From Escherichia phage HMD-6: a stretch of DNA of 64,000 nt. Location: sequence record PQ505080.1, one strand, 5' to 3'. Positions 1,393 to 62,596 of the stretch are shown one piece after another. Position numbers and translations under genes: made by a program. Position 1 is the stretch's first letter. Each line of letters opens with the position of its first letter. The notes below the pieces were generated by a model. The model did no database searches and was not told where the DNA came from. It was given only the letters and a program-made list of their open reading frames with translations.

Positions 1393-1421
1393 TTGACAAT
1401 GCACTATAATCATGGTAAAAT
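1393..1421 (+). promoter_or_regulatory. sigma70-like promoter TTGACA-N17-TGgTAAAAT upstream of tail chaperone gene
   Basis: Consensus -35 TTGACA at 1393-1398, 17-nt spacer, extended -10 TGgTAAAAT ending at 1421; ATG at 1465 with AAGGA RBS. Confidence 0.55.
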
Positions 1422-1464
1422 ACACAAATATGGTGCACAACATGACTAATAAGGATGCTATAAA

Positions 1465-1938
1465 ATGGCTATAAACTTTAGACCTACAACAGAGATTGAT
1501 TTAGCAGGGCACAACTTTGTGATCACCCACTGGGGTCCGATGAAAGCAATGAAAAACATGCCTAAAATCGGTAAGATTGTAGCTGTCCCGCTAGGTGCTA
1601 TCGGTGGATCTATTCTCTCAGGCGGTCAGAATATGGCAGAGGTCCTTCCTACAGCCCTGGCTTACCTGTTCCAAGAACTTGATGACAACTCTATTGAAGA
1701 GTTATTTAAAATCTTGTTCGAAGATATTACCGTAGATGGTGTGGATAAGCTTAACCCTGATGTTGTGTTTGCAGGGCATCTCCTAGAGATGATTAAGCTG
1801 GCAGGTAAGGTTCTGGAGGTTAACTACGGCTGTTTTTTCACACAAGACGGTTTAGGAAGCCTTCTGGAGATGTTACAGCAGATGGGTATGATTCAGCAGG
1901 TGAACAATCTGGATCAGACTCCGGAAGAGCAGGAATAA
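1465..1938 (+). CDS. tail assembly chaperone (gpG-like)
   Basis: 157-aa ORF immediately upstream of the tape measure gene, with a slippery heptamer near its 3' end and an open -1 frame continuing downstream. Confidence 0.7.
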   Translation: MAINFRPTTEIDLAGHNFVITHWGPMKAMKNMPKIGKIVAVPLGAIGGSILSGGQNMAEVLPTALAYLFQELDDNSIEELFKILFEDITVDGVDKLNPDVVFAGHLLEMIKLAGKVLEVNYGCFFTQDGLGSLLEMLQQMGMIQQVNNLDQTPEEQE

Positions 1939-2198
1939 GCAAGGTTGTTGTGAGAGCCAGTGAGTGGGCAGCCAAGAACAGTTCACTCAACTGGTTCGAC
2001 TTTCTTTGGTGCAGGGTGCTCAAGAATTTCAAAGGGGAAAATTTTGAATCGCTAAATCTTGCAGATATGGCGTATTTCCTTAAACTTTGTGAGTATCTTG
2101 ATATCGAAGAATTCCTAGATACCGTCCAAAACAGGGAAATGGAGCGGGAGCAGAAGGCTGCCGCAGCTGCTGCGAAAGCTAAGCGCAGGAGAGGATAA
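1465..2198 (+). CDS. tail assembly chaperone frameshift fusion product (gpGT-like), -1 frameshift at 1833-1839
   Basis: Heptamer T_TTT_TTC (1833-1839) in the zero frame of the 1465 ORF. The -1 frame is open from 1824 to the stop at 2196-2198 and matches the 1950..2198 ORF of the track. Canonical G/GT arrangement ahead of the tape measure. Confidence 0.6.
1833..1839 (+). other. -1 programmed ribosomal frameshift slippery heptamer U_UUU_UUC
   Basis: X_XXY_YYZ motif read directly in the sequence (tgt ttt ttc in the G frame). Confidence 0.6.
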
Positions 2199-2203
2199 TC
2201 TAA

Positions 2204-2238
2204 GGGCCGGATTCCTTTTCTGGGATCTGGCCCTTTTT
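2204..2238 (+). terminator. intrinsic terminator-like hairpin between chaperone and tape measure genes
   Basis: GGGCCGGATTCC ... GGGATCTGGCCC stem (~12 bp, with G-U pairs), then TTTTT at 2234-2238. Confidence 0.5.
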
Positions 2239-2252
2239 ATTATGAGGAAAGC

Positions 2253-61440: not shown

Positions 61441-61489
61441 TGTAAACTATCAACACACGGAAGTGTTGTTAGACAGAGAGGAGACTTTT

Positions 61490-61774
61490 ATGGTAGTAGA
61501 ACCGACAAAAACATTTACCTCCATGACTATTCCTGTTATTATGCAGGTAGAGTGCGTTCAGGTGTCCCAAGTGTGGCCAGGTACTAAAATTCCAACAGGG
61601 CCTGATTTCTTCCAGGTTGGAAAGGTGTACAATGTATGGAAGGCACCGGATTGTTACCCTTTCATTAAAGATGACCGTGGAATGTTATGGTATCTGGGAA
61701 ATGATTTGACACTACATCTTGGAAATGCTATTATTGCAGTGTTCCGGCTCAACAAGAAGGAGGCAGATCAATGA
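61490..61774 (+). CDS. small paralog family protein (KDDxG...W motif)
   Basis: Track ORF from 61400 overlaps polymerase exon 2; ATG 61490 has a GAGGAG RBS. Motif 'FIKDDRGMLWYLGN'. Confidence 0.5.
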   Translation: MVVEPTKTFTSMTIPVIMQVECVQVSQVWPGTKIPTGPDFFQVGKVYNVWKAPDCYPFIKDDRGMLWYLGNDLTLHLGNAIIAVFRLNKKEADQ

Positions 61775-61998
61775 CAACTTTGGTTAAAGCTACGTTTGTA
61801 GAAGAAAAGATGACAGGCTTGTCATTCTTTAAAGAAGGAAAGACCTACAAGGTTTATTACGATAAGGATCGCGGAAACAATATGATCGAAGACGAGGAAG
61901 GTATTTCCTGGTATATCTCTCACCTGACAAATGGTGAGTATCATATCTATGGAACCACCCTACTTGCCAAGTTTGTAGCTGTTGAAGAGGCTCTATGA
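61771..61998 (+). CDS. small paralog family protein (KDDxG...W motif)
   Basis: 75 aa; 'MIEDEEGISWYISHLTNGEYHIYG'; GAAGGAGG RBS. Confidence 0.5.
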   Translation: MTTLVKATFVEEKMTGLSFFKEGKTYKVYYDKDRGNNMIEDEEGISWYISHLTNGEYHIYGTTLLAKFVAVEEAL

Positions 61999-62189
61999 AA
62001 GTAAAGTATCTGGCTGAAGGTATGAGTAGGTATTTTACCCTTGGAGAAGAGTATTGGCCCTTTACGGAAAATGGAGATGTATACGTGAAGGATGACCAAG
62101 GTGTGCCGTGGTTTCTGCACCATAATGGGTTGGGGTATTCCATCTACTGCGGTGCAGTGAACAACACAACCCTTGCAGAGTTTGTCTAG
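61995..62189 (+). CDS. small paralog family protein (KDDxG...W motif)
   Basis: 64 aa; 'YVKDDQGVPWFLHHNGLGYSIYCG'. Confidence 0.5.
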   Translation: MKVKYLAEGMSRYFTLGEEYWPFTENGDVYVKDDQGVPWFLHHNGLGYSIYCGAVNNTTLAEFV

Positions 62190-62199
62190 AGGAGGCAGA

Positions 62200-62571
62200 A
62201 TGTTAGTAAAAGGTACCCACACAGTCAAGCAACGTATTGAAGTTGAGATTGATGATTGTGAGCTGAAGCATATCTTACGGTCGTGCTCCAACGTTTTGCT
62301 CCTCAGTATTCTCCAGGAGCGAGCGGAGAACGAGTTCTTAAATGCACTGGCAGGCCGTCCTGGTGACTTCTGTGTACGTAAGCGTGAAGATCATAAGTCA
62401 TGGTTGTGGGAAATCGATGCCGACTGGGATTACCACAAAAATGAGGGCATAGATGAGCCTATTCGTGAATTGACAGATAAAGAGATTCAGATGTACAATG
62501 AAGTTTGTCATTGGGCAAAACGCCAACAAATTTACCTCGACCCTGTGTGGATGATTGAAAATAGCCATTGA
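62200..62571 (+). CDS. hypothetical protein
   Basis: ATG at 62200 with GAGGAGG RBS (track ORF from TTG at 62173). Confidence 0.5.
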   Translation: MLVKGTHTVKQRIEVEIDDCELKHILRSCSNVLLLSILQERAENEFLNALAGRPGDFCVRKREDHKSWLWEIDADWDYHKNEGIDEPIRELTDKEIQMYNEVCHWAKRQQIYLDPVWMIENSH

Positions 62572-62596
62572 CAAGAAGTAAGATTGGATATAAGAT
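62568..62596 (+). promoter_or_regulatory. sigma70-like promoter TTGACA-N17-TAAGAT
   Basis: -35 overlaps the stop of the upstream gene; -10 at 62591-62596; 51 nt upstream of the ATG at 62647. Confidence 0.45.

Follow-up and report, generated by a model that had tools for sequence, protein, structure and literature searches.

Conserved terminator-like and promoter-like signals of the ordinary host type in an rV5-like Escherichia coli phage

Introduction

Hairpins closed by a C(UUCG)G tetraloop are exceptionally stable and were first noticed in the intercistronic regions of phage T4. Extended -10 (TGn) sigma70 promoters are found in E. coli and in coliphages, and the late promoters of T5 are read by the unmodified host polymerase. 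For rV5, a relative of the phage considered here, predicted promoters and terminators were catalogued with the genome (Kropinski et al., 2013, Virol J 10:76, Table S4; PMC3606486). Its authors reported a late motif, TggTAaAAtA, which they likened to the T4 late sequence TATAAATA; they found no homologues of gp55, gp33 or gp45, described no phage RNA polymerase, and concluded that sigma70-like promoters are used across the genome (PMC3606486). The Certrevirus paper also leaves a phage RNA polymerase unreported for the subfamily (PMC7344957), and the literature searched yielded no published transcriptomics (transcript ends or transcription starts) for Vequintavirus or Vequintavirinae. In T4-like phages, PeSL (promoter-early stem-loop) cassettes form a repeated family of about 50 members per genome, found chiefly in hyperplastic early regions, with proven recombination and mini-circles (Arbiol et al., 2010, PMC2839356; Comeau et al., 2014, PMC4122927).

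The window analysed here, 64,000 nucleotides from Escherichia phage HMD-6 (PQ505080.1), is from a Vequintavirus, an rV5/FV3-like E. coli myophage with 93-99% identity to published genomes. Its repeated hairpins and promoter-like sequences are real and conserved, and are predicted to stop and start transcription; very probably they are ordinary bacterial-type signals, intrinsic terminators and sigma70 promoters, from which initiation, termination and the timing of expression can be proposed. Signals of this host type were catalogued for rV5 in 2013 and are thus already known. Table S4 of that paper covers all elements of the window but one, at orthologous positions and in near-identical sequence: promoters P051, P048, P040, P036, P030, P010/P011 and P220, and terminators t050, t049, t041, t028, t026/27, t003 and t232. 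The exception is the hairpin at 21982, which is absent from the rV5 terminator list (PMC3606486). The record of phage Gotham carries the identical sites as ARNold and PhagePromoter predictions. The significance of these signals is mainly one of annotation and small beyond it; for rV5-like phages used in therapy or typing, they suggest that the structural module comprises several host-polymerase transcription units, split by terminators.

Results and discussion

Hairpins with the features of intrinsic terminators

All elements listed in the first-pass annotation were recovered at their positions on direct reading of the sequence, and its proposal that three terminators use the same hairpin, CCCCGC-UUCG-GCGGGG, holds exactly for two of them. 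The hairpin CCCCGCTTCGGCGGGG is exact at 21982-21997 and 48703-48718, and the one at 16476-16491 departs from it by one mismatch (CCTCGC..., giving a U.G wobble), its stem extending to GCCCTCGC/GCGGGGGC. Predicted RNA energies of the three are -16.9, -16.5 and -13.5/-14.0 kcal/mol; shuffled sequence contains no match to CCCCGCTTCGGCGGGG.

All terminator hairpins examined form stable, G+C-rich RNA (-13.5 to -27 kcal/mol; z -1.5 to -5.3 against shuffles), and those tested lie 3-15 nt past stop codons, on the coding strand, in intergenic gaps. A U-rich tract follows the stem directly at 2236, 4627, 16494, 21998, 31511, 37203 and 55423; of the T-tracts, those at 16494 and 21998 are good, that at 48719 is weaker and interrupted (ATTTTCTATTT; AUUUUCUAUUU), and that at 28348 is poor. 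In the structural module, nearly every intergenic gap longer than 45 nt has a terminator, a promoter or both. The hairpins have the sequence and structure of rho-independent terminators, with a G+C-rich stem, C(UNCG)G closure of the loop and then a U-tract, and would be expected to act as such. They share loop, closing pair, stem and U-tract with the C(UUCG)G hairpins and intrinsic terminators known from T4 intercistronic regions, and differ from them in nothing substantive. Searches for known structured RNAs under the cassettes (Rfam, gathering thresholds) returned none, the sole match being a group I intron elsewhere, and a tRNA search returned none.

The exact 16-nt hairpin is found in at least 120 unrelated IMG/VR viral contigs, and 98 of its 125 occurrences there (78%) are followed by at least five T in 8 nt; judged by this distribution, it is a generic terminator design in unrelated viruses. 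Convergence on a very common and very stable terminator design is the best explanation for its presence at several sites of one genome.

Stop and start signals of the structural module

The TTGnnn-N17-TGnTAAAAT promoters proposed at 1393, 16506, 22016 and 28347 are all present. The first (1393..1422, +; rV5 P051), TTGACA-N17-(TGG)TAAAAT-A (TGGTAAAATA), has hexamers invariant in relatives and precedes the gene for the tail assembly chaperone (1465-1938; Pfam Phage_TAC_15). An intrinsic terminator with a 14-bp stem, -27 kcal/mol and a T-tract (2202..2243, +; rV5 t050), 100% conserved, precedes the tape-measure gene. At 4605..4668 (+), the terminator GGGGGGGC-UCCG-GCCCCC with its T-tract (t049) is followed after 12 nt by the promoter TTGTAA-N17-(TGA)TACAAT-A (P048); this cassette (4605/4639) had been overlooked in the first-pass annotation. 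The cassette at 16474..16535 (+), upstream of a distal tail protein gene (PHROG match), consists of the terminator GCCCUCGC-UUCG-GCGGGGGC with the tract UUUUUGUUUG (t041) and, 12 nt past it, the promoter at 16506, TTGCGT-N17-(TGG)TAAAAT-A (TGGTAAAATA), which is the late promoter P040 of rV5. Upstream of the baseplate wedge gene, at 21979..22045 (+), the terminator AAGCCCCGC-UUCG-GCGGGGUUU with its T-tract stands 15 nt before the promoter at 22016, TTGACT-N17-(TGG)TAAAAT-A (TGGTAAAATA; P036), an architecture that four other genera retain at their orthologous site. At 28326..28376 (+), the hairpin AGAACGGCA-AGGA-UGCCGUUCU abuts, with its 3' arm, the -35 of the promoter at 28347, TTGCAT-N17-(TGT)TAAAAT-A (TGTTAAAATA; late P030); because its T-tract is poor and it overlaps the -35, its role may be attenuation or occlusion instead of termination. 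Further on, an intrinsic terminator lies between two tail-fibre genes (31489..31517, +; t028), and a bidirectional one between the convergent late (+) and early (-) units (37181..37202, both strands; t026/t027).

The succession of a terminator and, at once, a promoter, as first claimed for several sites, is seen at 16474/16506, 21979/22016 and 28326/28347, and also at 4605/4639, but not at 48703 or 1393. The hairpin with its tract AUUUUCUAUUU at 48703..48728 (+; t003), which precedes a cell-wall hydrolase gene (Pfam Hydrolase_2), has no promoter after it, the next gene starting 20 nt on; the promoter at 1393 adjoins a homing-endonuclease gene, where relatives have the terminator t052 about 50 nt upstream and rV5 has the spacer between t052 and P051.

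Placed back to back, terminators and promoters would split the tail, baseplate and fibre region of about 36 kb into successive transcription units, in which read-through from upstream would be stopped or attenuated and transcription restarted, giving differing expression levels among the structural genes. The T-tract of the terminator occupies the position expected of an UP element (about -38 to -55), and a dual function is conceivable.

Sigma70 recognition and a late signature

Extended -10 elements of the form TG(G/T/A)TA(A/C)AAT occur at 1413, 4659, 16526, 22036 and 28367, with the -35 hexamers TTGACA, TTGTAA, TTGCGT, TTGACT and TTGCAT, each at 17-nt spacing and without variation in relatives; a start codon with a Shine-Dalgarno sequence follows 28-43 nt past the end of the -10. 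The earlier description of these promoters as sigma70-like is borne out by the invariance of both elements among relatives: they have the sequence of extended -10 sigma70 promoters and would initiate as such. As no phage RNA polymerase has been reported for the subfamily, transcription of the structural module must fall to host RNA polymerase, which with sigma70 would be the reader of the window's promoters. Like the extended -10 promoters of E. coli and coliphages and the late promoters of T5, they have TG one base upstream of TAnAAT, a weak requirement for the -35, and structural genes behind host-type promoters; they differ in an invariant trailing A (TAAAATA), which lies outside the E. coli consensus, and their recognition by sigma70 is a prediction.

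It had also been proposed that host-type transcription dispenses with a distinct late motif. The sigma70-type promoters agree with the first half of this proposal, and a distinct late signature contradicts the second: TGnTA(A/C)AATA with a degenerate TTGnnn -35 is carried by 6/6 late-module promoters (the five of the window and the P056 site in EmilHeitz), and TG precedes the -10 in 6/6 late as against 2/11 early-region promoters (Fisher P = 0.002). In the late module, promoters would pair a weaker -35 with an extended -10 that is invariant, where early-region promoters have the consensus TTGACA -35, a contrast in the -35 that is itself biased, since the early set was picked by its TTGAC pattern.

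Enrichment, conservation and covariation

The pattern TTGAC-N18-TANNNT occurs 22 times in the window against 2.8 +/- 1.8 expected, and TGNTAAAATA occurs 4 times against 0.85 expected, in 4/4 cases in intergenic gaps of the structural module and on the coding strand. Hexamer and extended -10 positions are invariant at 80/80 sites in 8-10 relatives, compared with 59% of third-codon sites (P ~8e-19); in the early promoters, 58/60 hexamer sites are invariant, compared with 61/85 spacer sites (P = 6e-5). The promoter and terminator signals are far above chance and, as this pattern of conservation indicates, under purifying selection.

As a search of IMG/VR with the baseplate protein found three close relatives only, distant ones came from phages in GenBank. 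In Mydovirus, Henunavirus, a Serratia phage and Seunavirus, the terminator orthologous to the one before the baseplate wedge gene has different stems; across five genera, compensatory changes affect 5/8 pairs, pairing is kept in 97.5% of cells and the loop reads UUCG or UCCG, in an alignment that was anchored manually on the hairpin, a choice that favours pairing. Within the genus, six relatives share a compensatory change from C:G to A:U in the stem at 28333/28340. Other genera keep TG(G/A)TAAAATA at 17-nt spacing from TTGCAA-like hexamers.

Cassettes and mosaic junctions

The suggestion that the repeated hairpin is a recombination hotspot fails between the hairpin copies themselves and survives in a weaker form, in that regulatory cassettes lie at mosaic junctions in three cases. 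The copies have 16 nt in common and unrelated flanks, no relative shows a deletion of the interval between copies (112/122 are collinear across 16000-24000), and none shows a rearrangement between them; ectopic recombination, and with it the strong version in which the three identical hairpins recombine mutually, is rejected, 16 nt also being very short for homologous exchange. The hairpin is equally rejected as a mobile or recombinogenic repeat, given its unrelated flanks, a direct-repeat search that yields no cassette family, and the generic nature of the 16-mer.

In the weaker form, the cassettes would be short conserved linkers for the swap, insertion or deletion of modules by homologous or microhomology-mediated exchange, for which the PeSLs of T4-like phages offer a precedent (PMC2839356, PMC4122927). 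We consider this reading tentative and rather unlikely. At 1370, 23 nt ahead of the -35 at 1393, the sequence again becomes homologous to that of about 115 relatives, at the right edge of the homing-endonuclease insertion. At 16469, a replacement of the tail-fibre tip and a 110-aa ORF, seen in FV3, magaca, JEP1, an IMG/VR contig and others, ends 5 nt before the terminator stem. At the junction at 54184-54203, behind the promoter at 54117, most relatives, including rV5, have an adenine methyltransferase gene, which this genome and phiWec189 cleanly lack, with an overlap of 10-30 nt between the flanking alignments; in SYGMH1, a cassette of promoter, 5'-UTR hairpin and ribosome-binding site stands on either side of this gene, and the two have extended blocks of identity in common. 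However, these are three cases only, each junction is also a plain gene boundary, and one of them concerns a homing endonuclease, whose gene inserts by a mechanism of its own. About seven other breakpoints lie outside cassettes: intragenic at 14563-14683, intron- or endonuclease-related at 56189, 60347, 60758 and 60878, and due to paralogue copy number at 41731/41966.

The likeness to PeSLs consists in intergenic composites of a sigma70 promoter and a stem-loop (4605-4668, 16474-16535, 21979-22045, 28326-28376 and 54117-54174) and in a methyltransferase gene between two similar promoter/hairpin/ribosome-binding site cassettes; the coincidence of some cassettes with indel or replacement breakpoints among close relatives would be a further, tentative likeness. 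Unlike PeSLs, the cassettes of the window do not form a repeat family: outside the hexamers and the hairpin they have no common sequence, the two flanking the methyltransferase gene in SYGMH1 being the sole mutually similar ones; those of the late module have only short functional motifs in common, and the three junctions are known from comparing sequences. For phage engineering, the signals could guide the choice of sites for payload insertion or tail-fibre module swaps that leave regulation intact; conserved cassettes adjoining the fibre-tip replacement (16469) and the indels of accessory genes would be natural, tolerated junctions for this.

A phage factor for late promoters, and protection of mRNA ends

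Against the main reading, consensus-grade sigma70 promoters before tail genes (1393, 22016) are expected to fire early as well, and late timing does not follow from them. TGnTAAAATA could instead mark a phage-specific late class, read by host RNA polymerase remodelled by a phage-encoded factor and distinct from plain constitutive sigma70 promoters; such a factor might block -35 recognition in the manner of AsiA and leave extended -10 promoters active, or be part of a late system like that of gp55/gp33. We hold this to be improbable. The motif is confined to the late module and invariant there (exact matches 4/4 intergenic and late; TG distribution as above), five genera retain it even where the -35 has decayed to TTGCAA, TTTCAA or TTTATA, and the rV5 authors noted its resemblance to the T4 late sequence (PMC3606486). 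A protein encoded at 43486-44475 (-), directly behind a strong early promoter, has similarity to Srd, the 'decoy of sigma70' (PHROG E 1e-9 to 5e-12); however, this match is weak, families labelled HNH endonuclease score far better, and Pfam has no match to this putative anti-sigma protein. The weak late -35 hexamers are, moreover, 100% conserved within the genus at a spacing of exactly 17 nt at 6/6 sites, which fits contacts with sigma70 region 4 and not -35-independent recognition.

With T4 late promoters (gp55/gp33/gp45) the window phage shares an A/T-rich, -10-like octamer upstream of late genes and differs in its conserved TG, its conserved TTG at -35 and the fixed 17-nt spacing; the motif is not of the gp55-dependent T4 type, given this -35 and the homologues that the rV5 authors did not find (PMC3606486). 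A T4 MotA-box-like element at -30 is likewise rejected, as the TTGCTT/TTGCAA hexamers lie at the canonical 17 nt, and not at 12 +/- 1, from the -10. A broader proposal would make the terminator and TGnTAAAATA cassette a conserved, Vequintavirinae-wide late control unit, which would need a putative phage factor shifting polymerase from -35-dependent early to extended -10 late promoters, and would double as a PeSL-like linker exchanging tail-fibre tips, homing-endonuclease and methyltransferase genes; it is speculative, and we doubt it as much as the factor itself.

That the hairpins are mainly protectors of mRNA 3' ends or processing barriers against exonucleases, and not efficient terminators, is very unlikely: it would suit the exceptional stability of C(UUCG)G hairpins, the poor T-tracts at 48719 and 28348, and the hairpin at 54157-54174, which cannot be a terminator on that strand because it lies in a 5'-UTR and has no T-tract, but most hairpins have a canonical U-tract directly after the stem, just past a stop codon, and the two roles are not mutually exclusive.

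Signals of the early region

Read as sigma70 promoters and intrinsic terminators, the signals of the early region include the TTGACx-N17-TAAGAT promoters, found as proposed at 44535-44507 (-), 54117 and 62568. The first is part of a divergent early pair (44507..44577, - and +) with conserved hexamers and variable spacers: TTGACA-N17-(TGA)TAAGAT at 44535..44507 (-), where rV5 lists P011 as TTGACA...TGATACGAT, and TTGACT-N17-TATAGT at 44549-44577 (+), which is rV5 P010. At 54117..54199 (+), read directly, the promoter TTGACT-N17-TAAGAT is followed by the 5'-UTR hairpin (54157-54174), and at 55397..55427 (+) lies an intrinsic terminator, GGCCCUGCCC-GAAA-GGGUGGGGCU followed by UUUU (rV5 t232). TAAGAT as a distinct promoter class is rejected, with three instances among about 11 early promoters whose -10 is otherwise varied; the trio is three early promoters with a common 4/6 -10 hexamer, and no class can be demonstrated. 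The last of them, TTGACA-N17-TAAGAT at 62568..62596 (+; rV5 P220), is one of the TTGACA promoters that lie densely in the early region of small ORFs at 61-64 kb.

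Predicted terminators and promoters of the window

The elements described here are textbook host-type signals, already published for the type phage: the rV5 genome is reported to have 33 sigma70-like promoters, 11 of them with an extended -10, and 20 rho-independent terminators, as well as eight copies of the motif TggTAaAAtA upstream of late genes 27-66, and its Table S4 lists orthologues, by sequence, of every element in the present finding except the hairpin at 21982 (Kropinski et al. 2013, PMC3606486). The same sites are annotated from ARNold and PhagePromoter in the GenBank record of Gotham, and sigma70-like early promoters have been described in Certrevirus, another genus of the subfamily (PMC7344957). 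What is added is evidence from conservation and covariation, the persistence of a cassette of terminator plus TGnTAAAATA across genera, and three junctions that hint at behaviour like that of PeSLs, the promoter-early stem-loop cassettes of T4-like phages.

A database comparison of the 8 kb of 16000-24000 gives 122 phage records with 90-99% identity, and almost all of these belong to Escherichia phages in the genus Vequintavirus (among them rV5, FV3, ECP26, Gotham and EmilHeitz); over 44-64 kb, SYGMH1 is 97% identical. The layout, taken from annotated relatives, comprises tail, baseplate and tail-fibre genes on the plus strand (1-37.2 kb), small early genes on the minus strand (37.2-44.5 kb), the last of them labelled 'anti-sigma factor', and early and replication genes on the plus strand (rIIA/B, helicases, primase, DNA polymerase and small ORFs; 44.6-64 kb). 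About 17 GenBank records (MG0656xx) named 'Campylobacter phage', with Campylobacter jejuni as host, are 88-94% identical to HMD-6, itself a Vequintavirus of E. coli, across the window, with several such records above 90% identity to these coliphages; they are probably mislabelled or contaminant assemblies.

Read directly in the window, all elements of the first-pass annotation are at their reported positions, and its promoters, TTGnnn-N17-TGnTAAAAT at 1393, 16506, 22016 and 28347 and TTGACx-N17-TAAGAT at 44535-44507 (minus strand), 54117 and 62568, have exactly the sequences it gave. The hairpin it described as common to three terminators is likewise present, the 16-mer CCCCGCTTCGGCGGGG being exact at 21982 and 48703 and carrying one mismatch at 16476, with no match in shuffled sequence; the predicted folds have -16.9, -16.5 and about -14 kcal/mol, and each is followed by a T-rich tract, that at 48719 being the weakest. 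Two points on the coupling of terminator to promoter are corrected: no promoter follows the hairpin at 48703, and no terminator precedes the promoter at 1393, because a gene has been inserted there in HMD-6. Absent from the earlier list are a terminator-promoter cassette at 4605/4639 and stand-alone terminators at 2202, 31489, 37181-37202 (bidirectional) and 55397. The loop of the bidirectional terminator (37191-37194) is GTTT in HMD-6 and three relatives and its reverse complement AAAC in five others, an exact inversion with the stem unaltered, which is what template switching within a palindrome should produce.

The promoters of the late module can be recognised as a subclass. The six that were examined (1393, 4639, 16506, 22016 and 28347, plus the P056 site in EmilHeitz) all have the TG, a -10 of the form TA(A/C)AATA and a degenerate TTGnnn -35, and TGNTAAAATA occurs four times in the window, each time between genes of the structural module and on the coding strand. 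Among early-region promoters the TG is found in only 2 of 11 (P = 0.002), both with the consensus TTGACA; as this set was chosen by its TTGAC pattern, the contrast in the -35 is partly built in. In a motif search of the window, TTGAC-N18-TANNNT is found 22 times against 2.8 +/- 1.8 expected.

Origin of the shared hairpin

The three hairpin copies have 16 nt in common and nothing else. The exact 16-mer is found in at least 120 viral metagenome contigs, those among the matches listed ranging in GC from 33% to 67% and none being related to HMD-6, and the next 8 nt include at least 5 T in 98 of the 125 occurrences among these matches. The terminator list of rV5 includes several other UUCG-loop terminators with different stems (PMC3606486). 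The most plausible reading of the sharing is thus convergence on a terminator design that is both common and very stable.

Conservation and covariation

When 8-10 Vequintavirus relatives are aligned to the window coordinates, the -35 hexamers and TGnTAnAATA elements of the five late-module promoters are invariant at 80/80 positions, compared with 59% of third-codon positions, a proxy for neutral sites, in the same late-module genes (P about 8e-19); their spacers are invariant at 63 of 70 sites. In the early region, 58/60 hexamer sites are invariant versus 61/85 in spacers (Fisher P = 6e-5). Hexamers that are kept while spacers drift are what real promoters classically show.

The hairpin that precedes the baseplate wedge gene has a counterpart in the orthologous position in Klebsiella phage KpS8 (Mydovirus), Erwinia phage Hena1 (Henunavirus), Serratia phage Kashira and Cronobacter phage Csp-D17 (Seunavirus). 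The stems are completely different there, but the C-G pair that closes the loop is kept, and the loop reads UUCG or UCCG. Compensatory changes are seen in five of the hairpin's eight pairs, and 97.5% of cells pair versus 65% in shuffles, in an alignment that is anchored on the hairpin and so favours pairing. In six relatives within the genus, both partners of a pair in the hairpin at 28326 have changed, from C:G to A:U. The promoter persists as well: TG(G/A)TAAAATA lies 3' of the baseplate-wedge terminator in all four other genera, with a -35 of TTGCAA, TTGCAA, TTTCAA or TTTATA, and Hena1 and Kashira have similar cassettes 3' of the tape-measure gene. Judged from sequence, the listed promoters and terminators are almost certainly functional.

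Probable transcription of the structural module

Most likely, the hairpins act as intrinsic terminators and the TTGnnn-N17-TGnTAAAAT elements as sigma70 promoters of the extended -10 type; the cassettes would then break the long structural region up into a series of units, where transcription arriving from upstream is halted or attenuated and then begins anew. Since no phage RNA polymerase is reported for the subfamily (PMC3606486, PMC7344957), host polymerase must read these promoters. The first-pass suggestion that the module is transcribed in this way holds for the sigma70 type of its promoters; its preference for this over a distinct late motif is not quite right, as the TGnTA(A/C)AATA subclass exists. 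A late system of the T4 type, independent of the -35, is argued against by the conservation of TTG at a fixed spacing of 17 nt, which speaks for ordinary sigma70 contacts. For rV5, the authors of the genome concluded that a T4-like modification of the polymerase 'might not occur' (PMC3606486).

The gene at 43486-44475 (minus strand), behind the strong early promoter at 44535, is labelled 'anti-sigma factor', 'HNH endonuclease' or 'anti-termination' in relatives. Its product has weak PHROG similarity to T4 Srd / 'decoy of sigma70' (E 1e-9 to 5e-12), far better PHROG scores against families labelled HNH endonuclease, and no match in Pfam; the anti-sigma label thus stands on thin evidence. A literature search found no transcript mapping for any member of the subfamily.

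Possible recombination at cassettes

The proposal that the repeated hairpin is a recombination hotspot is not supported: exchange between copies was not found, 112 of the 122 relatives align collinearly across 16000-24000, and the segment between the copies there is present in every one of the 122. A weaker form, in which mosaic junctions adjoin regulatory cassettes, is suggested by three cases. In the first, homology to about 115 relatives starts at 1370, 23 nt 5' of the -35 at 1393 and at the right edge of an inserted, free-standing homing-endonuclease-like gene (540 aa; PHROG 559, E 1e-111; PHROG 3339, E 2e-68; repeated CxxC treble-clef motifs). Its 3' part is window 1-1391 (plus strand), and the full-length gene is JEP1_014 (2766-4388 in the JEP1 stretch L003). 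It has its own TTGACA promoter, sits between the tail-tube terminator (t052 in rV5) and the 1393 promoter, and is present in only four relatives (JEP1, PDX and two 'Campylobacter phage' records).

In the second, FV3-type relatives differ by a replacement that takes in the C-terminal part of the lateral tail fibre (1479 aa) and the 110-aa ORF after it (PHROG 1361, unknown function), and homology picks up again at 16469, 5 nt 5' of the terminator stem. The segment 14563-16469, covering the C-terminal third of the fibre and the small ORF, is one allele; in FV3-type relatives the fibre is shorter (1266 aa) and the ORF is missing, and the difference is probably a swap of receptor-binding tip plus chaperone. 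In the third, an adenine methyltransferase gene (about 1.35 kb) lies behind the 54117 promoter in most relatives (SYGMH1, ECP26, JEP1, isim and EmilHeitz carry it) and is cleanly missing from HMD-6 and phiWec189 (junction 54184-54203). In SYGMH1 it stands between two promoter-hairpin-ribosome-binding site cassettes that share extended identity blocks, and the flanking alignments at the junction overlap by 10-30 nt.

These junctions match the description of PeSLs in T4-like phages by Arbiol, Comeau and Krisch (PMC2839356, PMC4122927). The likeness is suggestive only: each junction is also a plain gene boundary, a homing endonuclease is involved in one of them, and about seven other breakpoints are intragenic, intron-related or changes in paralogue copy number.

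Other variable loci

At 41221-41985 (minus strand), paralogous genes in tandem, each about 264 nt long (77-88 aa), number three or four among relatives, with alignment breaks at 41731/41966. The family A DNA polymerase gene (58335-61440, plus strand) is split at catalytic motif C by a group I intron (Rfam RF00028, 75.6 bits, E 2e-17) of 328 nt, placed at 60759-61086 (plus strand) from the motif C sequence (...IIYYH|DEYQLQV...); the alignment to the intron-less ECP26 breaks exactly at 60758|61087. Relatives have the intron with an HNH homing-endonuclease ORF, the intron without that ORF, or no intron. Exon 2 is a 'hypothetical protein' in many records, but the CDS is joined in the annotation of EmilHeitz, so the intron is already known. 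In EmilHeitz, a putative homing-endonuclease gene also separates the genes for the Dcm-like methylase and the primase (window 56189-56200). In JEP1, about 1 kb is inserted within polymerase exon 1 (window 60347-60375) and annotated as a single long ORF; the insertion could be an intein or another mobile element.
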